64,000 bases of DNA from assembly GCF_004010195.1 (NCBI RefSeq), contig NC_057719.1:37926200-37990199 (forward strand). Direction: 5' to 3'. Positions 3,498 through 63,937 of this stretch are shown here, one piece after another; within the stretch, counting starts at the first letter, position 1, and every line of letters begins with the position of its first letter. The notes beneath the pieces are model-generated. The model was not told where the DNA came from. It searched no databases and saw only the letters and a program-made list of their open reading frames with translations. The translations under genes were made by a program, and so were the position numbers. This stretch comes from Chiloscyllium plagiosum (Eukaryota).

Positions 3498-4678
3498 AGG
3501 GAAATTTGGTAGAGCTGCTCGGGAGGATTTAAACTAATAAGGTGGGGGGTGGTGGACCCAGGGAGATAGTGAGGAAAGAGATAAATCTGAGATGGTACAG
3601 TTCAGAACAGAAGAGAGTCAAACAGTCAGGGCAGGCAGGGACAAGATAGGACTAATAAATTAAACTGCATTTATTTCAATGCAAGGGGCCTAACAGGGAA
3701 GGCAGATGAACTCAAGGCATGGTTAGGAACATGGAACTGGGATATCAAGCAATTACAGAAACATGGCTCAGGGATGGGCAGGACTGGCAGCTTAATGTTC
3801 CAGGATACAAATGCTACAGGAAGAATAGAAAGGGAGGCAAGAGAGGAGGGGGAGTGGTGTTTTTGATAAGGGATAGCATTACAGCTGTACTGAGGGAGGA
3901 CATTCCCAGAAATACATCCAAGGAAGTTATTTGAGTTGAACTGAGAAATAAGAAAGGATGGTCACCTTATTGGGATTGTATTATAGACCCCCTAATAGTC
4001 AGAGTGAAATTGAGAAACAAACTTGTAAGGAGATCACAGCTATCTGTAAGAATAATAGGGATGTGGTAGGGGATTTTAACTTTCCAAACATAGACTGGGC
4101 CTACCATAGTGTTAAGGGTTTAGATGGAGATGAATTATTAAATGTGTACAAGAAAATTTTCTGATTCAGTATGTGAATGTACCTACTAGAGAAGGTGCTT
4201 GAAAATGTGTTGCTGGAAAAGCGCAGCGGGTCAGGCAACATCCAAGGAGCAGGAGAATCGACGTTTCGGGCATGAGCCCTTCTTCAGGAATCTTGCCCAA
4301 AACGTCGATTCTCCTGTTCCCTGGATGCTGCCTGACCTGCTGCGCTTTTCCAGCAACACATTTTCAGCTCTGATCTCCAGCATCTACAGTCCTCACTTTC
4401 TCCTACTAGAGAAGGTGCAAAACTTGACCTATTCTTGGGAAATAAGGCAATGCAGGTGACTGAGGTGGCAGTGGGGGACCACTTTGGGGCCAGTGACCAT
4501 AATTCTATTAGATTTAAAATAGTAATGGAAACGGATAGACCAAATCTAAAAGTTGAAATTCTAAATTGGAGAAAGGCCAATTTTAACGGTATTAGGCAAG
4601 AACTTTCAAAAGCTGACTGGGGGCAGATGTTCGCAGGTAAAGGGACAGCTGGAAAATGGGAAACCTTCAGGAATGAGA
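3498..4678 (+). mobile_element. CR1 LINE fragment: end of ORF1 plus APE endonuclease of ORF2, interrupted by a PLE-derived insertion
   Basis: AITETWL, GGGV, LYYRPPN, VGDFNFPNIDW, DHFGASDHNSIRF motifs; collinear with the copy at 27997-28560. Confidence 0.9.
4199..4403. mobile_element. Short palindromic PLE-derived insertion (antisense arm + sense arm + tail) with TSD
   Basis: Antisense arm 4200-4291, sense arm 4294-4403. CCTACTAGAGAAGGTGC is duplicated at 4182-4198 and 4402-4418. The empty site is visible in the CR1 copy at about 28286-28310. Confidence 0.9.
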
Positions 4679-7996: not shown

Positions 7997-8416
7997 GAGG
8001 GGAGGGGTCCAAGCCCAAGCCGGAGGTGGGGCGTTGGCAAGGAGTGTGTCCGCATGTGGACTAGGTTGGAGGCGGGGCGATGGAAGGGGGCGTGTCCGGG
8101 GTGGTGGAGGGATGTTGGGATGTTCAGGCAAGGGGGATGGGAGAGGGGAAGGGGCGAGACGGGAGGAGGCGGGGTCAACGTAAAAGGGGTGGGTCTTTAG
8201 AGGTGAGTCAATGGACGGGGCGGGGCGAGAGAAGGGGCCTGGTCTATGGGCGGGGCCAGAGTAAGGGGCGGTGCTGGGGGCGGGTTCGAGGGCGGGGCGC
8301 GGTTGAAATCGGCCAATGTTTGAAGGCGGCCCTCGGCGCTGCTGCTACAAGAGAGTGTGGGAGGCGCGGCGCCCGGCTTCGGGGACTATGACCCGGGGAG
8401 CGGTGTGTAATTGAAG

Positions 8417-8478
<62 letters not shown>

Positions 8479-8496
8479 CCTCGGCCCGGGACTCCG
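7997..8496 (+). promoter_or_regulatory. CpG-island promoter/5' UTR of ANKRD9(-like) with multiple GC boxes and a CCAAT box
   Basis: Dense CpG, repeated GGGCGG/GGGGCGGGG (e.g. 8217-8225), CCAAT at 8313-8317, no obvious TATA box. TSS not determinable from sequence. Confidence 0.75.
8417..8478 (+). repeat. Perfect hexamer microsatellite (GCAGGA)10+GC in the putative 5' UTR
   Basis: Direct count of 10 units at 8417-8476. Confidence 0.97.
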
Positions 8497-9423
8497 ATGC
8501 CGCCCCCGGCCATGCCCTGGAGTCTGGGCTATTGCAGCCCCGGGGGCGGTCAGCAGGAATCGCGGTGGCGGAAACGCTGCAGGAAATCATCGTTTGCTTT
8601 TTACCAGGCGGTGCGGGACCTGCTGCCTGTCTGGATGCTGGAGGAGATGAGGACCATGGAGGTGTTCCACTGGGAGGACAGTGGCCGCATCAGCAGCTAC
8701 TCGCCGTCCGAGGCTCTGCTCTATGCCCTGGTGCACGACCACCAGGCGTACGGCAAGTACCTGCTGAGCGAGCACCCCCGGGCTGCCCTGGCTATGTCCA
8801 GCACCAGCTTCTGTTGCTGCTCGGTCCTCGGCCAGCACCTGGCCATGGCTGTGCGCTACAACCGGGTCGCCACCCTGTCGCGGATCCTCGACAGCCTGCG
8901 CCGCTTGCCGGAGGGAGAGCGCCGCCAGTACATCGACCGCCGGGGCTGCGAGCATGTGGAGAGCGGCAAGACCCCACTGCACTTGGCGTGCGAGCTGGTC
9001 AGGCCCGAGTGTTTGACCCTGCTGCTCGGCCACGGCTCGTCTCCTTACATCAGGGACTGCCGCGGGGACACGGCTCTGGACACCTTACTGCAGCAGCTGG
9101 GTTCCAGTCCCCTGGACAATCCCAGGATGGCCAGGTGCCTGCATCACCTCCTGCTATTCATGCCCGAGCTCCAGTTTCAGATGAAGACGACGCTGAAGGA
9201 CAATGCCAGTCTCTGGCGGACCGTTCTGGGGACACCGCTCTTCCAATGGCTCTCGGGCTACAGCCCCGCTCCCCTCTTCATAAAGGCCATGCAAACTTTA
9301 ATCAGGACGATAGACCCCGAGAAATTCCCAGAGGGTCTGGACGAACTACCCATATCCCATCTCCTCCGAACTCTGGACTTTAAACTGACTGCAGGCGGCA
9401 CTGTCCGTTCAAACTTCGAGTGA
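8497..9423 (+). CDS. ANKRD9: Ankyrin repeat domain-containing protein 9 (or ANKRD9-like paralog), single coding exon; the likely start is the second ATG at 8512 (MPWS…)
   Basis: Intact 308-aa ORF. CRKSSFAFYQAVRDLLPVW, YSPSEALLYALVHDHQAY, AVRYNR, DRRGC, TPLHLACELVRPECL (ankyrin) and FQWLSG..P.LF..AMQ.L...I.P.KFPE.LDELP match my recollection of human ANKRD9, which starts MPW. ATG 8512 has G at -3 (GCCATG), while 8497 has C. Confidence 0.93.
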   Translation: MPPPAMPWSLGYCSPGGGQQESRWRKRCRKSSFAFYQAVRDLLPVWMLEEMRTMEVFHWEDSGRISSYSPSEALLYALVHDHQAYGKYLLSEHPRAALAMSSTSFCCCSVLGQHLAMAVRYNRVATLSRILDSLRRLPEGERRQYIDRRGCEHVESGKTPLHLACELVRPECLTLLLGHGSSPYIRDCRGDTALDTLLQQLGSSPLDNPRMARCLHHLLLFMPELQFQMKTTLKDNASLWRTVLGTPLFQWLSGYSPAPLFIKAMQTLIRTIDPEKFPEGLDELPISHLLRTLDFKLTAGGTVRSNFE

Positions 9424-9581: not shown

Positions 9582-9657
9582 TAAAAATGTGTTGCTGGAA
9601 AAGCGCAGCAGGTCAGGCAGCATCAAAGGAGCAGGAGAATCGACGTTTCGGGCATAA
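9582..9657 (-). mobile_element. Fragment of the short PLE-derived element (antisense arm only) in the probable ANKRD9 3' UTR
   Basis: Near-identical to 4200-4275 and 13477-13552. Confidence 0.9.
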
Positions 9658-12419: not shown

Positions 12420-14140
12420 CATTACCTCTGGAATTCAGCTCTTTTGTCCATGTTTGAACTAAGGCCGAATTCTGGAGCTGAGTCCCTAGCACAACCCAAA
12501 CAGGGTGTTGGTGAGCAGGTTATTGCTGAGCAAGTGCAGTTGGATAGCATGAATGATGACACCTTCTATCATTATACTGACAATCAAGAGTAGACTGATG
12601 GGGTGTTGATTAGCCTTTTGGATTTGCCTTGCTTTTTGTGTAAGGACATACCTGGGCTATTGTCCACATTGTTGTAACAGTACTGGAAGAGCTTGGCTAG
12701 AGGAGCAGTACAATCTGGAGCACAAGTCTTCAGTTCTATTGCTGGAATGTTGTTATGGCCCATAACCTTTGCAGTATCCAGTGCATCCTACCGTTTCTTT
12801 ATATCACATGGAGTGAAACAAATTTGCTTAAAACTGGTATCTGTAATGCTAGGGACCATTGGAGGAGATGGATCATCCAATTGGCACTTCTGGCTGAAGA
12901 TGGCTGCAAATGCTTCAGCCTTAACTTTTGCATTGATGTTTTGAGCTCCTCCATTATTGAGGAAGGGATATTTGTGGAGCTGCCTCCTCCACTGAGTTGT
13001 ACACCACCATTCACAGCTGGATGTGCCACTGCTGGGTCTGTCCAGGCAGATCATGTTTCTGGGATGTTGTGTGTAAGGTATGATTCAGTGAGTATGACTA
13101 TGTCAGGCTGTTGGTAGCTTCCCCAGTTTGACACCTCAGTTTTAATTATGCCTGGTGCTGCTCCTGCACATTCCATTGAACCAGGGGTGATCCCCTGGCT
13201 TGTATGGGGGAATATGCTGCACCATGAGGTTACAGATTGTGCTGGAGAACAATTCTGCTGCTGTTGATGGCCCACAGTGCCTCATGGATGCAGAGTCTTG
13301 AATTGGTAGGTCTATTTGAAGTCTGTCTCATTTAGCATGGTGATAGTGCCACACAGTACATTCTCAATGTGAAAGCAGGACTTTGTATCCATGAGGACTA
13401 TGCGCTGTCGCTGTTGCCAATACTTTCATGGACAGAAATATTTGCAACCGGCAAATTGCCAGGGATGAATTTGTGCTGAAAATGTGTTGCTGGAAAAGTG
13501 CAGCAGGTCAGGCAGCATCCAAGGAGCAGGAGAATCGACGTTTCGGGCATGAGCCCTTCTTCAGGAATGCGCTTTTCCAGCAACACATTTTCAGCTCTGA
13601 TCTCCAGCATCTGCAGTCCTCACTTTCTCCAGGGATGAATTTGTGTATGATTTTCCCTCTTTGCCTGCCATTGATCCAACCTGTCCTTTAGGACCTGATC
13701 ATCTCAATCAAGAGTGCTGCTGCTGAGCCACTCTTGGTGGTGAACATTTAAATCCCCAACCAGTGTATGTTTTGCACCCTTTCCACCCTCGGTGCTCTTT
13801 CCAAGTGTTGTTCCATGTGGAAGAGTATCAATTCATCAGCTGAGGGAAGATAGTATGTGGTAACAGCAAGAGGTTTCCGCGCCCATGTTTAACCTGAAAC
13901 CATGAGACTGTGTGGGTCCAGAGTCAATATTGAAGACTCTGGGGCCAACTCCCTCCTGACTGTATTGCCATCTCTGCTGGGTCTGTCTTGCCCATGGGAC
14001 AGGATATACCCAGGGATGGGTATCGTGATGTCTGGGACATTGTTTATAAGCTATGATTCCATGAGTATTTTGGCACCAAAGTAGGAAGTACTTTGCAGGG
14101 TCGACATGGTAGTTTCTGCTATTGTCTTTTCTGGTGCCCA
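12420..14140 (-). mobile_element. Second LINE family (CR1/L2 group, 'family B'), endonuclease to RT-proximal fragments
   Basis: QQPDIVILTESYL (endonuclease), KAEAFAAIFSQKCQLDDPSPP, ALVQTWTKELNSRG on the minus strand; homologous to 55848-57130. Confidence 0.8.
13476..13630. mobile_element. Short palindromic PLE-derived insertion with TSD
   Basis: Antisense arm 13476-13568, sense arm + tail 13569-13630; CCAGGGATGAATTTGTG duplicated at 13459-13475 and 13629-13645. Confidence 0.92.
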
Positions 14141-17435: not shown

Positions 17436-17562
17436 CTGATGAAGGGTTCCTGCCCGAAACGCTGTTTTTCCTGCTCCTCGAATGCTGCCTGACCTGCTGT
17501 GCTTTTCCAGCACCACTCTAATCTTGACTCTAACCTCCAACATCTGAGTCCTCACTTTCATC
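17436..17562 (+). mobile_element. Short PLE-derived insertion (sense) starting at the hammerhead core, 11-bp TSD
   Basis: TTTACTCAAAC at 17425-17435 and 17563-17573; element begins CTGATGA. Confidence 0.85.
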
Positions 17563-27996: not shown

Positions 27997-30164
27997 AGTT
28001 ACTGAGGGAGGATATTCCCGGAAATATATCCAGGGAAGTTATTGGGTGGATCTGAGAAATAAGAAAGAGATAATCACCTTATTGGGATTGTATTATAGAC
28101 CCTCTAATTGTCAGGGGGAAATTGAGAGACAAATTTGTAAGGAGATCACAGTTAACTGTAAAAATAATAGTGTAGGAGATTTTAACTTTCCAAACATTGA
28201 CTGGGACTGCCATAGTGTTAAGGGTTTAGATGGCGAGGAATTGAAGTGTGTACAAGAAAATTTTCTGATTCAGTATGTGGATGTACCTACTAGAGAACGT
28301 GCAAAACTTGACCTACTCTTGGGAAATAAGGCAGGGCAGGTGACTGAGGTGTCAGTGGGGGAGCACTTTGGGGCCAGCAACCATAATTCTATTAGATTTA
28401 AAATAGTAATGGAAAAGGATAGGCCAGATCTAAAAGTTGAAGTTCTAAATTGGAAAAAGGCCAATTTTGATGGTATTAGGCAAGAACTTTCAAAGCTAAT
28501 TGGGTGCAGATGTTCGCAGGTAAAGAGACGACTGAAAAATGGGAAGCCTTCAGAAATGAGATAACAGGAGTACTTAAGAGAGAAATCAGGAGGGCAAAAA
28601 GGGGACATGAGATAACTTTGGCAAATAGAGTTAAGGAGAATCCAAAATTACAAATACATTAAGGACAAAAAGATAACTAGAGAAAGAATAGTGGCCCTCA
28701 AAGATCAGCGAAGTGGCCTTTGTGGGGAGGTGTAGGAGATGGGGGAGATACTAAACGAGTATTTTACATCACTATTTACTGTAGAAAAGGACAGGGAAGA
28801 TAGCGAATGTAGGGACATAGATGGTGACACCTTGAAAAATGGCCATATTACAGAGGAGGAAGTGAAATGCATAAAAGTTGATAAATCCCCAGGACCTGAT
28901 CAGGTGTACCCTAGAACTCTGTGGGAAGCTACAGAAGTGATTTCTGGGCCTCTTGCTGAGATATTTGTATCGTCGATAGTTACAGGTGAGGTGCCTGGAG
29001 GTTGGCTAACATGGTGCCACTGTTTAAGAAGGGTGGTAAGGACAAGCCAGGGAACTATTGACCAGTGAGCCTGATGTTGGTGGTGGGCAAGTTGTTGGAG
29101 GGAATCCTGAGGGACAAGATGTACAAGTACTTGGAAAGGCAAGGATTGATTAGAGATAGTCAACATGGCTTTGTGCGTCAGAAGTCGTGTCTCACAAACT
29201 TGATTGAGTTTTTTGAAGAAGTAACAATGAGGAACGAGGAGGGCAGAACGGTGGATGTGATCTATATAGACTTCAGTAAGGCATTTGACAAGGTTCCCCA
29301 TGGTAGACTGGTTAGCAAGGTTAGATCTCATGGAATACAGAGAGAACTAGCCATTTGGATACAGAATTGGCTCAAAGGTAGAAGACGAAGGGTGGTGGTG
29401 GAGGGTTGTTTTTCAGACTGGAGGCCTGTCACCAGTGGAGTGCCACAAGGATCAGTGCTGCGTCCTCTACTTTTTGTCATTTACATAAATGATTTGTATG
29501 CGAGCATAAGAGGAATAGTTAGTAAGTTTGTAGATGACACCAAAATTGGAGGTGTAGTGGACAGCGAAGAGGGTTACCTCAGATTACAACAGGATCTTGA
29601 CCAGATGGGCCAATGGGCAGAGAAGTGGCAGATGGAGTTTAATTCAGATAAATGCGAGGTGCTGCATTTTGGGAAAGCAAATCTTAGCAGCACTTATACA
29701 CTTAATGGTAAGGTCCTAGAGAGTGTTGCTGAATAAAGAGGTTGAATAGGCTCGGACTGTTTTCCCTGGAGCGTCAGAGGCTGAGGGGTGACTTTATAAA
29801 GGTTTACAAAATCATTAGGGGCATGGATAGGATAAATAGACAAAGTCTTTTCCCTGGGGTGGGAGAGTCCAGAACTAGAGGGCATAGGTTTAGGGTGAGA
29901 TGGGAAAGATATTAAAGAGACCTGAGGGGCAACTTTTTCAAGCAGAGAATGGTACGTGTATGGAATGAGCTGCCAGAGGAAGTGGGGGAGACTAGTACAA
30001 TTGCAACATTGAAAAGACATTTGGATGGGTATATGAATAGGAAGGGTTTGGAGGGATATGGGCCGGGTGCTGGCAGGTGGGACTAGATTGGGTTGAGATA
30101 TCTGGTCGGCATGGACTATTGGACCGAAGGGTCTGTTTCCATACTGTACATCTCTATGACTCTA
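27997..30164 (+). mobile_element. HER1-type CR1 ORF2 (endonuclease + RT) to 3' end, with internal deletions at about 28566 and 29732
   Basis: ORF track 28046-28564 (endonuclease) and 29065-29736 ([33 protein letters not shown]); 3' tail present. Confidence 0.95.
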
Positions 30165-30409: not shown

Positions 30410-30528
30410 GGAGAAAGTGAGGTCTGCAGATGCTGGAGATCAGAGCTGAAAATGTGTTGCTGGAAAAGCGCAGCAGGTCAGGCAGCATCCAGGGAACAGG
30501 AGAATCGACGTTTCGGGCATAAGCCCTT
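30410..30528 (-). mobile_element. Short PLE-derived insertion including the tail
   Basis: Reverse complement of the sense arm + tail (…CACTTTCTCC). Confidence 0.9.
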
Positions 30529-33098: not shown

Positions 33099-33183
33099 GA
33101 GGAGAAGGTGAGGGCTGCAGATGCTGGAGATCAGAGTCGAGAGTGTGGTGCTGGAAATGCACAACAGGCCAGGCAGCATCCGA
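33099..33183 (-). mobile_element. Short PLE-derived insertion with a degenerate 14-bp TSD
   Basis: AATCGCTGATCCTC (33085-33098) vs AATTGCTGATCTTC (33184-33197). Confidence 0.75.
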
Positions 33184-34930
33184 AATTGCTGATCTTCCTC
33201 AGACATGATTCATCTCATTGCATAGCCCCCAAGCCCAATCCACGTGTCCTCCTCCTCTCTGTTAATGGAGGACATTACATCCCTGATGCTGTTCCTAACA
33301 TGAGTACATGTTCCTGCTGTGTGTTTTCTCATGTGCAGGTCTCTCTACAACATGCTATCAATCCTAGCCAGGCGCTAATGTTGTACTGGTGCTTATGAAT
33401 GATAGTGTGTCTGCAGGAAAGTTATCCCCTCCAAGCTGTCATCTCTGGGAATTTCTTGAGAATGTTCTTACTGCTAAGAAATGTATAACAGGAAAGAAGA
33501 AGGAGATGAGGTTGTGGATGCCACTAAGAGGCTGAATGTTTGCACATGAAAGGCATGACACTATTGGTTGAATTTTTAAGGTTGGTACAGTTGCTTGAAG
33601 TATACACAGTAAAACAAGGAACAAGTATTCACCCTGCTCTGTGGATTTGCTAGCATTGCCAGCTCTTATTCTATTTGTTCCTGTCGGGTCTCTTATTTCC
33701 GGTGCCAGCCAGGTGAGAGTTACCATGGACACTCCACCCCCACATTTTACTTCTTCCCCGAGTGTCGTAATCTACATCTGCAGAAGGAGGAGAGGATTAT
33801 AAACGATTACAGAGAAGGCAGGTGCACAAGAGAAGGTAAGTTTTGCTTCTTCTCTAGCAGATACATCTGCATTTTAATAAAGAAAATTTTCTTGAATGCA
33901 TTTAACAAACTTCTCACCTACATTTGCAACAATATAATTCTTGTTTCAGGCTAAACACGTCTGCTGGGTAACTTGTTCTCTGAATTACTTCCTCATGCAG
34001 TGGATAAGCTGACAGGGGCAAGAAACAAGGTATTGGGACAGCAGGGAGATATTGAATGAGCAGTAAGTGGCTTGAGTGAGAATACTCATAAAGGGAGGTG
34101 CAAGTTATGCAAATGACAGTGACTGAGAGGAGGATGGTGTTAGTGATAGGAGGACAGGCTGCAAGCGTTGGGAATTGTGATGATTATGGATATTAAAACT
34201 TTTTTTTTAATTTGGATTTCAATATAGACACATGTCCATGTTGATTACTTTGTGAAAGATTTTCCTTTAAAAAACAAAGTCAGAGTGTCCTTCCGGAACC
34301 ACAATTTAACTTTAACATTTTATCAGAGTAGGCAACTGTGTCTACACAATAGGTACAGGGCAGGCCAAAAGCTTTGTTTTCAGAAGGAAGGCTTTAGATT
34401 CGTTCAGAAGATACTAGTGCTGTATTTAGAAACCAGTTTAATTTCTCTCCGGGAAGGAGTTCAGGGAACAAGTTACCCAGCAGACGTGTTTAGCCTGAAA
34501 TAAGAATTATATTGTTGCAAATGTAGGCGATTTTAACTTTCCAGACATTGACTGGGACTGCCTGACATTTAAGGGCTTGGATGGTGAGGAGTTTGTTAAA
34601 TGCATTTAACAAATTTTTCTTTATTAAAATGCAGATGTATCTGCTCGAAAAGAAGCAAAACTTACCTGCTCTTGGGAAATAAGACTGGGTAAGTGACTGA
34701 GGTGTTAAAAGGAGCCAGTGATCATAACTCTAGTTATGAAAAAGGACAGGCCATATACAAAAGTTAAAGTAAGAGTAAGGCAAATTTTGATGGAATGAGA
34801 CAGGAACTTTCAAAAGTTGATTGAAGTAGACTGTACACAAGGAAAAAAGATTTCTGGAAATTGGGAGGCTTTCAAAGCTGAGATAACAAGAGTTCAGAGG
34901 CATTATGTTCCTGTTACAGTGAAGGGCATG

Positions 34931-37937: not shown

Positions 37938-38024
37938 TTGAAACTTTATTGCTGGAACAGCACAGCAGGTCAGGCAGCATCCAGGGAACAGGAGATTCGA
38001 CGTTTCGGGCACAGGCCCTTCTTC
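37938..38024 (-). mobile_element. Short PLE-derived arm inserted into the inverted duplication, 15-bp TSD
   Basis: AAGGCAGCAGCTGAG (37923-37937) / AAGACAGCAGCTGAG (38025-38039); absent from the source copy at 35241-35556. Confidence 0.88.
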
Positions 38025-43812: not shown

Positions 43813-44442
43813 AACCTGCGCCCACACCTCCTCCCTCACCTCCATCCAAGGCTCCAAAGGAGTCTTCCACATCCATCAAAGTTTAACCTGCACTTCCACA
43901 CATCATTTATTGTATCCGTAGCTCCCAATGCGGTCTCCTCTATATTGGGGAGTCTGGAAGCCTTCTCGCACAGCACTATAGAGAACATCTCCGAGACACC
44001 CGCACCAATCAACCCCACTGCCCCGTGGCTGAACATTTCAACTCCTCCTCCCTCTCTGCCAAGGACATGCAGGTCCTGGGCTTCCTCCATTGCCACTCTC
44101 TAACCACCCGACACCTTATCTTCCATCTCGGGACCCTTCAACCCCATGGCTTCAATGTGGACTTCACCAGTTCCCCATTTCCCCTCCCCCCACCTTACCC
44201 CAGTTCCAACCTTACAGTTCAGCACCTATTGCACTTTCAGCTATCTGCCATCCAGCCCCACCTCCCCCCCCTCCCCCTCCCATTTATCTCTCCACCCCAA
44301 AGCTCCCAGCCTCATTCCTGATGAAGGGCTCCGGCCCGAAACGTCGATTTTCCTGCTCCTCAGATGCTGCCTGACCTACTGTGCTTTTCCAGCAACACAC
44401 TCTCAACTCTGATCTCCAGCATCTGCAGACCTCCTTGTCTCC
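43813..44442 (+). mobile_element. 5'-truncated Penelope-like element (GIY-YIG, pLTR, hammerhead, tail) with a 15-bp TSD
   Basis: IYCIRSSQCGLLYIGESG…REHL; TGTTCAGTGTCACAA (43798-43812) / TGTTTAGTGTAACAA (44443-44457); homologous to 63230-63937. Confidence 0.9.
44314..44349 (+). ncRNA. Minimal (type I-like) hammerhead ribozyme motif with intact core
   Basis: ATTC-CTGATGA-A-GGGC(TCCG)GCCC-GAA-ACGT-C^GATT. Equivalent intact cores (CTGAAGA) on the minus strand at 4256-4291 and 13533-13568. Confidence 0.75.
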
Positions 44443-44609: not shown

Positions 44610-45100
44610 AAAAACTGAAAGAACTGCAGATGCTGTAAATCAGAAACACAAACAAAAGTTGCTGGAAACGCTCAGCAAGTCTGGCAGCATCTGTGGAGAC
44701 AAATCAAATTTAATGTTTCGGATCTGGTGACCCTTCCTCAGAACTGATGGTAGCTAGGAAAATGTTGGTTTATATGCAGAAGACAGGGTGGGGGGAGGAG
44801 GTAAGGAATAAATGAGAGGTGAGGATAGAGCCCAAAGAGAGAGAAAAACAGACAGAGGAGTCAATAACAATTTGATTGGGAGGGCGAATAGCTGTTTATG
44901 GACACTGTTAGTGGCTAACAATAGGTAGCGTGTAACAGCCGACCATGGGATAACAAGATGTGTGGGGTGGGGGCTAGGACATGGAGGAGTTCAGGGCCTA
45001 AAATTATTGAACTTGACATTGAGTCCAGTAGGCTGCAGGGTCCCCAAGTGGAAAATGCTGAGCTTCGCTAGAGAACTGCAGCAAGCCTGAGACAGAGATC
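44610..45100 (-). mobile_element. Penelope-like element 3' end, third family, with a hammerhead motif at 44708-44745
   Basis: Reverse complement has FHLGTLQPTGLNVKFNNF (PLE C-terminus) and AGTT-CTGAGGA-A-GGGTC(ACCA)GATCC-GAA-ACAT-T. Confidence 0.8.
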
Positions 45101-47500: not shown

Positions 47501-47724
47501 TGAGAGTGTGTTGCTGAAAAAGCACAACAGGTCAGGCAGCACCTGAGAAGCAGGAAAATCGATGTTTCGGGCCGGAGCTCTTCATTAGGAACCTATTGAA
47601 GAGGATTTTTCAATGGATTGTAACATCAATTCTCCTGCTCCTTGGATGCTGCCTGACCTGCTGTGCTTTTACAGCAACACACTCTCAACTCTGATCTCCA
47701 GCATCTGCAGACCTCACTGTCTCC
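47501..47724. mobile_element. Short palindromic PLE-derived insertion with a 16-bp TSD
   Basis: TGGTTAAATTATTAGT (47485-47500) / TAGTTAAATTATTAGT (47725-47740); antisense arm ends at AGGAA (about 47591), then ~30 nt of filler, then sense arm + tail. Confidence 0.88.
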
Positions 47725-49952
47725 TAGTTAAATTATTAGTCCACTGACACGACCACTCGATCACCAGGAACTAGCACATTAACCTCTTTTTATAATAAAT
47801 ACTTCACAACAACAATCTAAATTTGTGCAGTAATTTTAATTGTCAATTAATGCGCAAATGCAGCAATTTTAGGAAATTCACAGGAAGGCTGACAACGAGC
47901 TGCACTTTTCATGAAGTGCAAATATCAGCAGAAATTTGGAAATCCTCCAGCAACCATTAGTGATTCACAATTCACGTGGTGTTGCTTCCTCATAAATTGA
48001 TCAAAATCACAGGGAGCACCATTCAGCTTGCAGTTACGTCAGTGTTAAAACCGGATTCATTACCTTTTTTCTTCTCTTTTGCCCCTCCCATGATTGCTTG
48101 CAACAATTAAATTTGTTGAGCACAAGGTTGTATAAAAGAAAAGAAATAAATCCTGAAAGTAGTTGTTTGGTATTACAGAACTTGAGTATTGCTGAACACA
48201 GAACATATTACACGTACAGCACAGGAACAGATCCTTTGGCCCACCATATCTGCATTGACCATGATGTTATGTTAAGCTAATCACATCTGCCTACACTTGG
48301 TCTGTATCTCTCTATTCCGTGCCTGTCCACAGGTCTGTCTAAACGCCTCTTAAAAGTTACTATCGTATCTACTTCCACCATCTCTCCTGGCAGTGAGTTC
48401 CAGGCACCTACCGCCCTCTGTGTAAAAAACTTGCTTTAACTAGCTCTCTTAAACTGTTCTTTTCTCCTTGGGGAAAAGGAAATACAAAACTTTTTGTCTT
48501 GCACTCATCATGACAATTCACAAGAAATATCCAAATAAAGGATAACAATTTACTGCATACGCTCCTCCCATACAATTAAAAAAATGTTGAACAAAAACAG
48601 AAATTGCTGGAAAAACTCAGCAGGTGCTGCCTGAGCTGCTGAACTTTTCAAGCAATTTCTGCTTTTGTTTCTGATCTACAGCATCCACAGCTCTTTCGAT
48701 TTTTAAAAATATATTTATTTCCTTTTACTTCAGCTTTTCCCAAGAATTGTCCTGATGATTGCAAGATTAAAGGTTTCAGCAAAATATTTATTTTTTCTGC
48801 AATGCTCAAGATTTATAAAGATTAAAACAAATTGTATCAAAGAAAACATGGCCAGAAGGAAAAGTCAATGGAATAGAAAGGGATAGAAAGCAGAGTCATG
48901 TAAAAGACATTTTCAGGCTAAGAAAATGCAGGTTATGGTGCATATCAAGCAATTTTTCCGGGGATCAATTGTCTTTCCAATAATAAAACAATTCAAATAA
49001 CAGAAGTTGATGCATTCTGCAGAAAAGAATTACACCAAATGGGAACATCCAGAATAGTGTATCAAAATGATTCAAGGCCACAGATATATACATTTTTGAG
49101 AGGTAGAAGGGTGTAGCTGAATAAGTTTCTATATTAAAAATTATTTAAAAGTAGTCTTAAATTTTACATTTAGGAGCACTATAAAAGCAAGAAAATGATG
49201 ATGAATTTGTATATTGTTCAATCCAAAGTTGGAATGCTGTGTGCAATTCTCAAAATCCTGTTAGAAAGAGATTTATAGCACTCTTCAAAATTAGCCAAAC
49301 TTGGCTAATTATGGATCCAGATGTACAACATCTGATTAGTAAATAAAAATTAGTCTCAATAAGGATTTGCATAAAGTAGGCAGGTGTATGTTTGGTTTTC
49401 AGGCAACGAAAATTTAACAGAAAGACAAAACGTGTCCTGTCTTTCGTGTGCAAAACGTGTGCTAGTGTTATTTGGTCACTGAGTGCTTCACTTATCCAAT
49501 TCACAAATATAGATAGCCATATGTTGAATATATGTGCCTGTGAAATACACTACATTTTACTAATGCATTGAAGCTAAATGCTGCATTTGGAATTATTAAC
49601 ATCTGCTAATAGCCTTACCTAACAAAAATCTATTGACCTCAGCCTGGAGAGTTTGAACTGATCCAGCATTATATATCTGAGCAGGGAAATAGATGGTGGC
49701 ATAATCTTTCATGGTACCAATAGCAAAACCAAACAGAATAAAAGAGATTCAAGGACAGTCAGTCAGCTATGTCTGGAAAGCGAGTCTGCCCTTTCCTGCA
49801 TGAATTCATTCATCTCAATTCCAGAGGGGGTCAGAATTTGGCTGGCCAGGAAATAATCAGTGATCTTATAAACAGGACTATTTCAAAATTATTGTTTTTG
49901 TTCTCATGGAAGTTTCTGTAGTAATTTGGGTTGATAAGAAATTTGATTACAA

Positions 49953-54360: not shown

Positions 54361-55090
54361 GAAAAAAAGCCAAGGACAATATAACCTTGTTAAAGGAACA
54401 GCATCATCACAGTGTATAACCAGTGTTCATTGTGCTACGCGTATTATATACCTGTTGGAAAGCTAGATAATATAATGCCACTTACAGACAGTCAACATCA
54501 CTTAAAGGTGAACGATATCCTAGCTACAGACAAAGGGAAACATTTATGAATTGAGAAATGGGTGTAACAAGTAGGTCATCCATGTTTCCTGTTTTTGTCT
54601 TGAAGGCCTTAGTGCAGGGAGTAGAGAAAGTAAAACAGTGAACTATGGATGTTGGAGATCTGAAAGAGAAACAGAAAGTCTTGGAAAAACTCACAGGTCT
54701 GGCAGCACCAATGGACACACCCTTTATCAGAACTGGCTGAAGTGGCAGAAGCAGCACAACAGAAAATTCTAGACTCAAAACAGAAACTCTATTTTTCACT
54801 TCACGGATGTTGCCAGACTTGGTGAGTTTCTCCAGCACTGTCAGTTTTTGTAGTAGAGCTAAAGAACTACATCTTTTCCCTCAAGGCACACTCCTCCAGG
54901 TTATAGTTTCACCACAATTAGGAAGACTTCAAAAAGCAGGTTAATGACAGGAACCTAGCTTCCAGGTCAGAGTTGGAATTTAGACTGACTTCATCAGGTG
55001 TCAGAATGTTCAGGAAACAACGAAAATAAAACAAAGCATAATGCATGCTGGAAATCTGAAACCAAAACAGAGGAAATACTGGAGAAATTA

Positions 55091-55220
55091 ATTCCCAATG
55101 AAGGGCTTATGCCCAAACTGTCGATTCTCCTGCTCCTCGGATGCTGCCTGACCTGCTGTGCTTTTCCAGCACCACACTCTTGACTCTAATCTCCAGCATC
55201 TGCAGTCCTCACTTTCTCTC
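55091..55220 (+). mobile_element. Short PLE-derived insertion nested in an older palindromic PLE-derived element (55040-55378)
   Basis: Starts ATTCC at the hammerhead 5' edge; TGGAGAAA repeated at 55080-55087 and 55222-55229. Confidence 0.8.
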
Positions 55221-55847
55221 TTGGAGAAACTCAGCAAGTCTGACAGCATCAGTGGAGAGAAAACAGATTTAACATTTTGAGTCCAATGATCTTTCTTCTA
55301 AACGTTAACTCTGCTTTCTCCCCACAGATGCTGCCAGATCTGCTGAATTTCTCCAGTCAGTTCTGTTTTTGTTCAGGTAACGATGCAGTTCTCTCCCTCT
55401 CTGCTCAGATGTTCTCTCAGATTTCTCTGTATCATGTACAGTTTCAGTACTCATAGTGCTTCCTTCATTCATCCCCTTTCCCTTTCCTCCAATCACTGCA
55501 CCATATTTCAGACTGCCATTTTTCCACAAACAAACATAAAACTCCAGTATTGCAACCTTCATTTCTCCACACTGTAAAACAAGCTAATCCACCATGAAAG
55601 GCACCATTATTAAATACCTCATACATCTGTCATTGACACTCACCTGTCCCTCTGGCAGGGGAAGGACGCTCATCACTCAGGAGGCTGCCATTCAGCCTGC
55701 ACTCTCCCTTTGAAGATAAGGAGGCATAGCAGGGTGATCAATACCCAGATTTTATGCAATTGTCCCGTAAATCAGCTAATTGTCTCACATGTTCTATATT
55801 ATTACTTTTCAGGGCCACCTTTGTCCAGTATTGTTCATTATTGCTCA

Positions 55848-57130
55848 TTCGCAGCAATCTTCAGTCAGAAGTACTGATTGGATGATCCATCTCGCCCACC
55901 TCCAGTGGTCCCCAATATTACTGACACCAATCTTCAGTCAATTTGGTTCACTCCACATGATATCAAGGAACAGTTGGAGACTCTGGATACTGAAAAGGCT
56001 ACGGGCCCTGACAACATTCCAGCAAAGCACGGAAGACTTATGCTCCAGAACTTGTCGCTCCCCTCGCCAAGCTCTTCCAATACAGTCATGACACTGGCAT
56101 CTACCTGACAATGTGGAAAATTGTCCAGGTATGTCCTGTACATAAAAAGCAGGACAAATCCAACCATCAGTCTACCCTCAATCATCAGAAATGTGGTGAA
56201 AGGTGTCATCAGCAGTGCTATCAAGCTGCACCTGCTCAGCAGTAACCTGCAGAGTAACACCCAGGCTTCTTCAGGCTTATGCCCGAAACGTCGATTCTCC
56301 TGTTCCTTGGATGCTGCCTGACCTGCTGCGCTTTTCCAGCAACACATTTTCAGCTCTGATCTCCAGCATCTGCAGTCCTCACTTTCTCCTGTGACCAATA
56401 AGAGACAATCTAATCACCGCCCCTTGACATTCAATGGGGTTACCATCAATGAATCCTCTACTATCAATATTCTGGGGTTATCATTGACCGGAAACTCAAG
56501 TGGACTCAGCACAGAAGTACAGTGACTACAAGAGCAGGTCAGAGGCTAGGAATACAGTGACAAGTAACTCTGCTCCTCACTCCCCAAAGCCTGTTCACAA
56601 TCTACAATGCACAATCAGGAGTGATGGAATACTCCCCACTTGCTCAGATGGGTGCAGCTCCAACAACACTCAAGCGGCTTGACACCATCCAGGACAAAGT
56701 AGTGTGCTTGATTGGCACCACATCCACAAGCATCCACTCTCTCCATCACCGATGATCAGTAGCAGCAGTGTGCACAATCTACAAGATGGACAGCAGAAAT
56801 TCACCAAAGATCCTCAGACAGCACCTTCCAAACCCACCACCACTTCCATTTAGAAGGATAAAGGCAGCAGATACATGGGAACGTCAATCCTTCAAATTCC
56901 TCTCCAAGCCATTCACCATCATGATTTAGAAACATGTCACTGTTCTTTCACTATTGCTGGGCAAATGTCCTGGAATGCCAAGCCTTAAGGGCATTGTTGG
57001 TCAACTCACAGCAGGTGAACTGCAGCGGTTCAAGATGGCAGCTCCCTAGCATCTTACCAAGGGCCACAAATATGGGCAATAAATGCTGACCAGTCAGTGA
57101 CACCCACATGCCACAAAAGATAAGAAAAAA
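55848..57130 (+). mobile_element. Family-B LINE, RT-proximal region to 3' end, with a PLE-derived insert at 56266-56389
   Basis: DDPSRPPP, KATGPDNIPA, WKIVQVCPVHKKQDKSN; 3' end GGGCAATAAATGCTG…CCCACAT + A-rich tail. Confidence 0.85.
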
Positions 57131-61439: not shown

Positions 61440-63937
61440 CTTTACTGAGGACTGCCGAGTTTTCACCTTCCCTCAGACCTGCCCCTCACTGAGGACGAAC
61501 GATCAGCCATCAGCAAAGGACTTACATTCATCCCCCTCTATTCATGCATCAACGAATTCAGTACACATTATGACGTTGAACACTTCTTCCATCACCTCCA
61601 CCTCCGAGCTTACCTTTTCCAACCAAGACCCCCGCCCACCTTTAGAGGACCCCTTCGCTTGCTCCAACACACCCCATCCACCTGGATATCCTGTGCCGGT
61701 CTGTTACCTGCCCTCAACCTCTTTATTTCCAACTGCCGCAGAGACATTAAGCGCCTCAACCTGTCCACCCCTTCTCTTTCACTCGAAACTCTCACCCTCA
61801 TAACGCATAGCCCTCCACTCCCTCTGCTCCAAACACAACCTCACCATCAAACCAGCAGACAAGGTGGGTGCAATGGTAGTTTGGCGCACTGACCTCTACA
61901 CTGCTGAAACCAGGCACCACTTGAAGGCACCTCCTCCAACCGCCCCCTTGACCACCACCTCACCTCCCATCACCAAACCATCATCTTCCTCATCACCGCA
62001 GGGGATCTTCCACCCACAGCTTCCAAACTCATAGTTCAGGAACCCCCACACCATTTGGTTCTACCTCCTATCTAAGATTCACAAGCCTGACTACCCTAGC
62101 CGACCTATCGTCTCAGCCTGCTCCTGCCCCACCGAATTCATCTCCACATACCACAATACTGTCCTATCCCCCGGGTCCAGGAACTCCCCACATACGTTCA
62201 GGACAGCACCCACGCCCTCCACCACCACCTCTAAGAGTTCCATTTCCCTGTCTCCCAACGCCTCATCTTCACCATGGACATCCAGTCCCCTATATACCTC
62301 CATCCACCATGATCAGGGCCTCAAAGCCCTCACCAGAACCTTTCCACTGACACTTTCATTTGTTTGGCTGAACTGGTCCTCACACTCAATAATTTCTCCT
62401 TTGAATCCTTCCACTTCCTCCAGACGAAAGGGGTAGCCATGGGCACCCGCATGGGCCCCAGCTATACCTATCTCTTTGTCGGCTACATAGAACAGTCTAT
62501 CTTCCGCAGTTTCACCTGCAGCACTCCCCACCTTTTCCCCCGCTACACTGATGACTGCATTGGCGCCACCTCATGCTCCCACGAGGAGGTTGAACGTTCA
62601 TCAACTTCACCAACACATTCCACCCCGACCTTAAATTCACCTGGACCATCTCTGACACATCCCTCCCTTTTCTGGACCTCTCCATCTCCAGCAACGGTGA
62701 CCAACTCAACACTGACATTTTCTACAAACCTACCGACTCCCACAGCTGCTGGATTACACCTCCTCCCAGCCTGTGAAAATGCTATCCCTTATTCTCAATT
62801 CCTACAGCTCCACCGCATCTACCCCTAGGAGTACCAGTTCCACCACAGAACACACCAGATGGCCTCCTCCTTTAAAGACCGCAATTTCCCCTGCCACGTG
62901 GTTGAAGATGCCCTCCAGTGCATCTCATCCACACCTCCCGCACCTCCGCCCTCAAAACCACCCCTCCAAACGCAACAAGGACAGAAGCCCCCCCAGTCCT
63001 CACCTACCACCCCACCAACATCCAATTACATTGCATCATCTTCCGCCATTTCCGCCACCTACAAACAGACCCCATCACCAGGGATATATTTCCCTCTCCA
63101 TCCCTATCCACTTTCCATAAAGACCATTCCCTCCGTGAGTACCTTGTCAAGTCCACGTCAGCCAACAACCCACCCTCCCCTCCCGACATCTTCCCCTGCC
63201 ACCTCAGGAATCACAAAACCTGCGTCCACACCTCCCTCTCACCTTGGTCCAAGGCCCCAAAGCAGCCTTCCACATCCATCAAAGTTTCACCTACACTTCC
63301 ACACACGTCATTTACTGTATCTGTTGCTCCCCACGTTGTCTCCTCTACATTGATGAGACAGGTTGCCCACTCTCAGAGCACTTCAGAGAACATCTCCAGC
63401 ACACCCGCACAAACCAACCCCACCGCCCTGTGGCCAACACTTCAATTCCCCCTCCCACTCTGCTGAGGACATACAGGTCCTGGGCCTCCTCCATCGCCAC
63501 TCCCTTACCACCTGACCCCTGGAGGATGAAAGCCTCATCTTCTGCTTTGGGATCCTCCAACCCCATGGCATCAATGTGGATTTCAACAGTTTCATTTCCC
63601 CATCCCCCACCTTATTCCAGTTCCAACCTTCCACGTCAGTACTGCTCTCCTGAACTATCCCACCTGTCCATCTTCCTTCCCAACTATCTGTTCCACCCTC
63701 CCTTCTGACTTTACCCCTGCCTCCATCCACCTATTGCACTCTCAGCTACCTTCCCCCCAGCCCCACCCACTGCCATTTATCTCTCCACCCCCAAGACTCC
63801 TGAACTCATTCTTGATTAAGGGCTTTTGCCCGAAACGTCGATTTTTCCTGTTCCTCGGATGCTACCTAACCTGCTGTGCTTTTCCAGCACCACACTCGAC
63901 TCTAAGCTCCAGCATCTGCCGTCCTCACTTTCGCCTA
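61440..63937 (+). mobile_element. Large Penelope-like element: RT + GIY-YIG + pLTR with degenerate hammerhead (63808-63843) and tail; frameshifted
   Basis: LPLTEDERSAISKGLTFIP, KPADKG, KIHKPD..RPIVSAC, FTMDIQS, GVAMGTRMGPSY, RYTDD, VIYCICC..CLLYIDETG..LSEHFREH. Confidence 0.95.

Follow-up and report, generated by a model that had tools for sequence, protein, structure and literature searches.

Short head-to-head insertions in the shark Chiloscyllium plagiosum as probable products of the front end of a Penelope-like element RNA

Described Penelope-like elements and the insert at 4199-4403

In Pen2a_Av of Adineta vaga, the inverted 5' copy of the pseudo-LTR (pLTR) is 37 bp shorter than the direct pLTR (PMC3846280), Penelope of Drosophila virilis has a 34-bp repeat (PMC2377424), and a general scheme for Penelope-like elements (PLEs) includes an inverted tailless copy (Craig et al. 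2021, PMC8557442; see also PMC8969392). The origin of the inverted repeats and of the one-sided tails has been called unresolved (PMC8557442, PMC11167929). In vitro, the Poseidon protein of Anolis carolinensis cuts and extends both strands and is predicted to be a dimer (Frangieh et al. 2024, PMC11167929). It initiates reverse transcription at two internal positions, one at each end of the tail, near the 5' end of the RNA and downstream of the hammerhead, the cleavage of which is not needed (PMC11167929). Minimal hammerheads of metazoan PLEs occur mostly as single motifs from truncated elements, and as opposite-strand pairs 100-700 bp apart in Schistosoma (Cervera and De la Pena 2014, PMC4209133).

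We analyzed a stretch of 64,000 nucleotides of the C. plagiosum genome (contig NC_057719.1, positions 37,926,200 to 37,990,199), hereafter the window. We number the element relative to the C of its hammerhead CUGANGA box, which is position 0; the tail ends at +124, and the predicted cleavage bond is +27/+28. The insert at 4199-4403 is the hammerhead-bearing pLTR end of a PLE, probably of the endonuclease type, inserted head-to-head. Its tailless arm (4200-4291, minus strand) runs from +87 to -4, contains a full minimal hammerhead with the core C at 4287, and belongs to variant class C13-C38-T42. Two extra bases (4292-4293) separate it from the tailed arm (4294-4403, plus strand), which runs from +15 to +124, is truncated at its 5' side inside hammerhead stem II and lacks the catalytic core. 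This sense arm belongs to a different variant class (T38-C42), and it alone carries the 37-nt tail (4367-4403, plus strand). The insert is flanked by a 17-nt target duplication, with a left copy at 4182-4198 that has 2 nt in common with the element end and a right copy at 4402-4418, both on the plus strand. The duplication is real, since a sibling LINE copy at 28207-28404 carries the target sequence once and represents the empty site; we take the target to be a CR1-type LINE. The predicted fold of the insert stands far from chance (z = -20).

An inverted tailless copy together with a 30-40-nt tail has already been published, and the layout is not new. Like published insertions of endonuclease-type (EN+) PLEs, the shark stubs have a shorter inverted copy, a one-sided 30-40-bp tail, a target duplication, partial tandems and a hammerhead in the pLTR (PMC3846280, PMC8557442, PMC2377424). 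They differ in that the insertion is often just the pLTR end, 100-260 bp long and present at roughly 100 copies per Mb, and in that the duplications are typically 14-16 nt instead of 8-10 nt. The published explanations are self-priming or endonuclease resolution, whereas we read the shark stubs as the work of two primers.

The shark motif shares with the minimal type I hammerheads of metazoan PLEs the core, an extra base before stem II, a short helix I and a palindromic CG that replaces helix III (PMC4209133); the boundaries of short copies, and sharks, lie outside the scope of that study as far as its available text extends. Non-LTR retrozymes (preprint 10.64898/2026.07.22.740005) resemble the stubs in their origin from a PLE pLTR, in their type I hammerheads and in their reported occurrence in one cartilaginous fish. 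They are, however, head-to-tail tandem units that each hold a full ribozyme and average 363 bp in that fish, whereas the insert at 4199-4403 is head-to-head, has one incomplete ribozyme and shares no unit with other copies. Two-unit direct repeats of the pLTR do exist, but with a spacer of different length in every locus. Neither inverted stubs nor a cap signature are among the topics of the Anolis study in its available portions (PMC11167929). Literature searches at the level of titles and the openings of abstracts returned no paper on shark PLE palindromes or on a cap-derived G in PLEs.

In LINE-1 twin priming, the position of the second priming event varies and there is no overlap between the resulting parts. 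The shark stubs differ, in that each site has a fixed position and one sequence is present in both arms. Three long PLE bodies with an internal inversion (L098, L155 and L080) were also seen; their parts overlap by only 20-35 nt in L098 and L155, which resemble L1 twin-priming products.

Two 3' boundaries and their pairing

Frequencies were obtained from a blind sample of 140 stretches of 10 kb at round coordinates (1.4 Mb, of which 60,675 bases are N), and genome-wide counts are exact matches in the 3.56-Gb genome. A profile search of the blind sample returned 238 clusters with a total of 315 arms, and in 68 clusters the arms stand head-to-head. We excluded 13 head-to-head clusters (3 at the edge of a region, 1 with N, and 9 that were low-scoring or of another family, including L131:1390, the sole pair with two tails), which left 55 palindromes. 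Extrapolation from a density of 113 clusters per Mb gives about 400,000 clusters genome-wide. The 29 query-similar loci from the first DNA search were omitted from the frequencies of tail pairing and of 5' edges and were kept in the counts of target duplications, boundaries, ORF-side bases and variant sharing.

The 3' ends of the arms fall into two classes, at +87 to +91 and at +124 to +126. A tailed arm is paired with a tailless arm in 51 of the 55 palindromes (binomial p of 1e-11 against one half), and the remaining 4 lack a full tail on either arm. The sequence-only reading of the window had proposed that the antisense arm always falls 36-37 nt short of the sense 3' end. The one-sided tail is upheld by these counts, and 44 of the 51 tailless arms end at +77 to +96; "always" is too strong, as the other 7 end at +36 to +75 and the boundary itself is spread over +87 to +91. 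Not one of the 175 young-subfamily arms has its end between +97 and +115, and the modal tailless boundary of +87 to +91 is found in 57 of 68 palindromes, query-selected loci included. Young pairs are one-of-each in 36 of 40 cases, with 3 tail-free pairs (one of which is a scoring artefact) and 1 two-tailed pair, and unpaired young arms comprise 43 tailed and 52 tailless copies. Both 3' classes are sharply defined, and they are combined in a coupled way. In the available account of Anolis Poseidon, the start site shows no strand bias, which counts against two-primer coupling, whereas the start sites in the shark stubs are paired one-of-each (PMC11167929).

Target duplications accompany 68 of 75 young palindromes (query-selected loci included); they measure 10-18 nt, and 14-16 nt in 52 of the 68. 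An automatic rule finds them in 13 of the 97 single copies of the blind sample. Bases shared at the junctions average 1.2 and 1.9 nt, in contrast to Poseidon, for which no primer homology was found (PMC11167929).

Two palindromes, L131:1390-1651 and L166:528-646, have two tails or none, and 25-30 nt of their flanking DNA is itself inverted; they possibly represent a different kind of rearrangement. A variant at +59 that appeared specific to one arm in 13 of 26 query-selected pairs was dropped, since its 183 exact copies genome-wide yielded 14 tailed and 16 tailless arms among 30 fetched.

The 5' edge, the hammerhead and the untemplated G

The 5' ends of 75 of 199 arms in the blind sample, for which 97 of 163 single copies passed the filters, lie at -8 to +1. 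This amounts to 7.5 ends per base, against a background of at most 1.4 per base from +12 on and at most 0.7 from -60 to -9. Another 35 of the 199 arms end at +2 to +11, so the peak is broad. Taken with the 3' ends, arm boundaries form sharp peaks rather than a uniform spread, as the earlier reading had predicted. The same edge is visible in exact genome-wide copies with the 3' end fixed at +37, which number 27,158 from 0, 16,036 from -4, about 11,700 from -5 (by subtraction), 9,296 from -6 and 7,927 from -8. The loss of copies per base, from 0 down to -8, is 12%, then 27% and 20%, then 8%, and is steepest between -4 and -6. The 5' edge is a strong yet leaky stop. A 5'-end histogram made with an indel filter loses most long copies and served for base composition only.

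The edge had been described as the point at which the antisense arm stops, at the 5' side of the hammerhead. This applies to 24 of the 51 tailless arms of palindromes, which end at -8 to +1; another 14 end at +2 to +9, 9 further in and 4 upstream. Sixteen of the 51 tailed arms end there too, and so do 15 of 52 tailed and 20 of 45 tailless single copies.

The minimal hammerhead is real, with 102 core motifs with a stem II of at least 4 bp in 1.4 Mb and none in five shuffles; across copies of the motif the loop varies and the stem is kept. Rfam models detected no hammerhead and gave only weak microRNA-like hairpin matches, and single-sequence folds of the hammerhead and start-site region were no better than shuffles (z of -0.45 to -0.89; -2.1 for the window PLE). 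The 5' peak at -4/-5 coincides with the 5' strand of stem I, 31 nt upstream of the predicted cleavage bond.

This coincidence, the reality of the motif and a slight, non-significant excess of ends at +26 to +32 (10 of 199 in 7 nt, against 23 in the 27 flanking bases; p = 0.12 in a small sample) would fit a retrozyme-like unit that is bounded by the ribozyme, self-cleaves, perhaps circularizes, and spreads as a palindromic mini-element. We regard such a unit as very improbable and largely refuted. Cleavage-defined copies would start at +28 and stand head-to-tail, whereas the observed ones start at -4 and stand head-to-head. Moreover, the palindrome junctions are not shared between copies, a palindrome transcript is predicted to close up as a single hairpin in which the ribozyme is masked, and the sense arm at 4199-4403 lacks the catalytic core. 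The proposed unit of about 90 nt bounded by the ribozyme survives as a stretch that is often copied in one step, whereas a boundary set by the ribozyme is not supported, given a peak at -4/-5 and a predicted bond at +27/+28. Two ORF-bearing copies (L199 and L218) start at about +26 to +28, that is, at the predicted cleavage bond; two are too few to call.

The base at -4 is the A in TCATTCC, an initiator-like motif that we take to fit the initiator consensus. In L1 and SVA, an untemplated G is the mark of capped full-length copies (PMC4859970). At -5 of the shark element, where the template base is C, the non-template bases genome-wide are G in 2,609, A in 1,263 and T in 481 of 4,353 cases. The share of G is 60%, against about 27% expected, and at other ends with a template C next, G was found in 10 of 43 cases. 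G is also raised at ends from -2 to +1 (11 of 22), and the polymerase may simply favor adding C at any template end. We inspected 41 arms with G by eye. In 6 of them a lone G is supplied by neither the target nor the partner arm, and 12 more have it inside short inserts; in 23 of the 41, G is also present in the target or the partner arm, which weakens the cap signature. One locus (L290) has an untemplated G on both arms. At the insert, base 4292 is a G and corresponds to -5 of the tailless arm, a position occupied by C in the template; it is a candidate cap G, but could also be left over from the sense arm.

Copies with an ORF start, which must derive from the front part of the RNA, were found at 27 independent loci after removal of 3 duplicates. 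Ten start at -8 to +2, 12 are cut short, and 5 run well upstream of -4, so longer transcripts are also used. Internal jumps from the ORF to the pLTR land at -6 to 0 in 13 of 22 cases. From these DNA signatures we infer that -4 is the putative capped transcription start of the PLE RNA.

That the edge is instead a point where reverse transcriptase stalls or RNA is processed at the folded ribozyme, for example at a splice acceptor, appears extremely improbable. The end of an intron in Drosophila virilis does map to the 5' end of helix I (PMC4209133), and many shark copies extend past -4, yet -4 has no AG acceptor and the junctions share no common upstream exon sequence. Furthermore, a polymerase that moves 3' to 5' would have stem I already open at -4, and a stall predicts no excess of G.

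Proposed template and priming of the stubs

The pLTR sequence terminates long PLE bodies, with or without the tail, and also precedes the start of the ORF, as a partial tandem pseudo-LTR; the short insertions had been attributed to PLE pLTRs, and this stands. In the young subfamily, the pLTR continues for about 39 nt past the tail to the first ATG of the ORF, and the ORF start and one 3' part are the coding regions seen. In Anolis, by contrast, the ORF begins within the hammerhead and the tail belongs to the coding sequence (PMC11167929). A stop-free frame of a related body (L140) matches RVT_1 above the cut-off (E of 9.8e-8) and is 80% identical to 62343-62597 of the window. The nearest named relatives of the reverse transcriptase (RT) are Chiloscyllium punctatum proteins (86-91% identity), and several full-length relatives carry PF01541. 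A fragment just upstream of the pLTR weakly matches GIY-YIG with 21.7 bits (E of 2.6e-4; cut-off of 22.6 bits). On the window's own broken frames, Pfam missed the RT and endonuclease (EN), and four further RT/EN fragments gave no match. The RT motif looks Neptune-like.

The PLE body at 61440-63937 (plus strand), earlier named as the mobilizer, is not supported in that role. It is old, broken and 5'-truncated, with an RT motif region, an endonuclease region, the pLTR and the tail, and it belongs to an older subfamily than the arms of the insert. It is at most 83% identical to its best relatives and about 83% identical to the insert at 4199-4403, whereas young-subfamily copies that are linked to an ORF are 96% identical to the arms. 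Judged by these identities, it is not the source subfamily of the insert.

The 51 palindromes of the blind sample fall into 48 junction classes and are therefore built anew. The variant classes of 132 short arms are the same as those of 61 body- or ORF-linked arms, and none is confined to short copies. Tailed arms extend 4-9 bases into ORF-side sequence in 17 of 68 palindromes, which points to a pLTR-ORF transcript as the template, as the sole carrier of such bases. These results speak against the earlier idea of a separate, retrozyme-like non-autonomous family. A non-autonomous family with a master of its own was rejected for want of a shared structure or private variants, although single arms may act as minor sources. 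A MITE or fold-back DNA transposon was also rejected, since the ends are asymmetric by about 36 nt, the duplications measure 10-18 nt and the sequence is that of a retroelement end.

Exact pLTR-ORF junctions number at least 138 genome-wide, a lower bound owing to masked stretches, and some of the RNA may come from loci that lack the ORF but keep an intact promoter. A broader form of this idea, in which short ORF-less pLTR copies (single arms or 5'-truncated bodies with a promoter) are transcribed and mobilized in trans, partly as a SINE-like non-autonomous family, would suit the excess of short copies over these junctions (27,158 against 138, about two orders), the 7,927 exact copies that retain the upstream half of the initiator, and the known non-autonomous PLE derivatives (PMC8557442; preprint 2026.07.22.740005). 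We find it quite unlikely, given that short copies have no variant class of their own, that the ORF-side bases are absent from a solo copy ending at +124, and that the Anolis protein requires RNA downstream of the start sites (PMC11167929).

The insert is, in our view, probably a head-to-head PLE stub made at the time of insertion from the front end of the likely capped RNA of an autonomous element. The endonuclease would make a staggered cut; one 3' end would prime at the end of the tail and the other about 36 nt further in, and both would copy toward the 5' end of the RNA. The binding site would also lie within the first 130 nt of the transcript, so that copying would run off at the transcription start (the A at -4), often with the addition of a base opposite the cap. 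The two cDNAs would then be united by microhomology or end joining. The inner primer would usually be first at the 5' end, which would leave the tailless arm more often complete. Both arms would usually come from one RNA or one source locus and sometimes from two, as at 4199-4403. The hammerhead would stand at the edge for no other reason than that its first helix is where the transcript likely begins.

In 28 of 51 pairs, the tailless arm extends beyond the tailed arm on the 5' side, and in 12 the opposite is true. Arms are alike at two diagnostic sites in 54 of 65 pairs, against 32% expected if they were independent, while 4 of the 65 pairs, including 4199-4403, differ at both sites and are not explained by a single RNA. 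Gene conversion between arms could inflate the concordance of the remaining pairs. The sharing of variants would also be expected if the mirror arm of a PLE-derived insertion arose by self-priming or fold-back of one cDNA or from an antisense template, with the tail produced by endonuclease resolution (PMC3846280, PMC8557442). One-of-each pairing would be a natural outcome of fold-back, and the centers overlap by microhomology in several palindromes, 3 of 51 sharing an 11-nt overlap. Nevertheless, this route seems unlikely. Where the tailless arm reaches further, it holds sequence absent from the tailed arm, and fold-back from the tailed arm is therefore excluded in those 28 pairs unless a loop was lost later. 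In addition, a cDNA begun at +88 cannot template the tail, both arms of L290 have G at -5, and the pairs that differ at both sites combine arms of different variant classes.

Within the two-primer reading, a more specific version holds that a dimer couples the priming of the two strands at a 14-16-nt staggered cut, with one subunit per fixed site, 36 nt apart on the RNA leader, and run-off at a capped 5' end that is the first hammerhead base; we give this version an even chance. If it were true, the stubs would document PLE integration across the whole genome, the tail, the inverted pLTR and the one-sidedness would be explained together, the transcription start of a vertebrate PLE would be fixed from DNA alone, and template jumps from the cap end would be the source of the tandem units behind retrozymes. 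The mechanism becomes directly testable with the existing in vitro system, by comparing coupled with independent start sites and capped with uncapped template. The family comprises tens of thousands of natural products that are almost identical and whose ends can be measured, and thereby offers a handle on how PLEs insert. For annotation, several hundred thousand short shark palindromes belong with PLE ends, and not with MITEs, microRNA hairpins or retrozymes.

Duplication-flanked composites were found at L088:2135-2709 (minus strand) and L191-L220, in which a pLTR is followed by a variable segment from the start of the ORF and then by another pLTR, which may or may not carry the tail; an inverted arm often precedes the whole. 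We considered L088:2135-2709 as a 334-nt non-autonomous unit and rejected this, since the spacer differs in each of 30 related loci, as template jumps would produce. The composites look like template jumps from the 5' end of the RNA and could be seeds of tandem, retrozyme-like units.

Other copies in the window

All three palindromic insertions first noticed in the window (4199-4403, 13476-13630 and 47501-47724) were confirmed, with different flanks. In the one at 13476-13630, the tailless arm runs from +88/89 to -5 and the tailed arm from +62 to +124, within a 17-nt duplication. The one at 47501-47724 belongs to an older subfamily; its arms run from +90 to -3 and from +22 to +126, with about 30 extra central bases and a 14-nt duplication.

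The two arm-only copies are indeed single tailless insertions, both on the minus strand. The copy at 37938-38024 spans -2 to about +88 and has a target duplication. The copy at 9582-9657 spans +12 to about +87 and so stops short of the hammerhead edge; a target duplication was looked for there and not found. Sense-only copies had been said to begin at the edge. This is the case for the single tailed copies at 17436-17562 (plus strand; start at about 0, with an 11-nt duplication) and 55091-55218 (plus strand; start at about -4). Other tailed copies begin elsewhere, at +6 (30410-30528, minus strand), +9 (56274-56390, plus strand) and +42 (33100-33183, minus strand, start at 33181). The 5'-truncated PLE 3' end at 43887-44442 (plus strand), in which an endonuclease fragment (GIY-YIG, E of 0.018, below the cut-off) is followed by the pLTR and the tail, has its pLTR start at -85 (44223).

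The copy at 55091-55218 sits inside a member of a second, older hammerhead family, which occurs in the window at 44620-44750, 48590-48694, 54776-54839 and 55222-55370 and in the blind sample at L085:6939, L091:1322, L143:6558, L148:9483 and L031:2281. This family also forms head-to-head pairs, with a tail of about 31-40 nt on one side. A third class of hammerhead motif, with 17 matches (L031-L170), is characterized by GGAGC/GCTCC in stem II, CAC/GTG in stem I and a GC that replaces helix III. The window further contains a 79-nt inverted repeat without a pLTR match (33914-33992 and 34452-34530; 94% complementary, 459 nt apart). Lastly, an open frame of 343 codons at 8392-9423 (plus strand) resembles the ankyrin-repeat gene ANKRD9; 160 nt separate its stop codon from the tailless copy at 9582-9657, which may thus be part of its 3' UTR.
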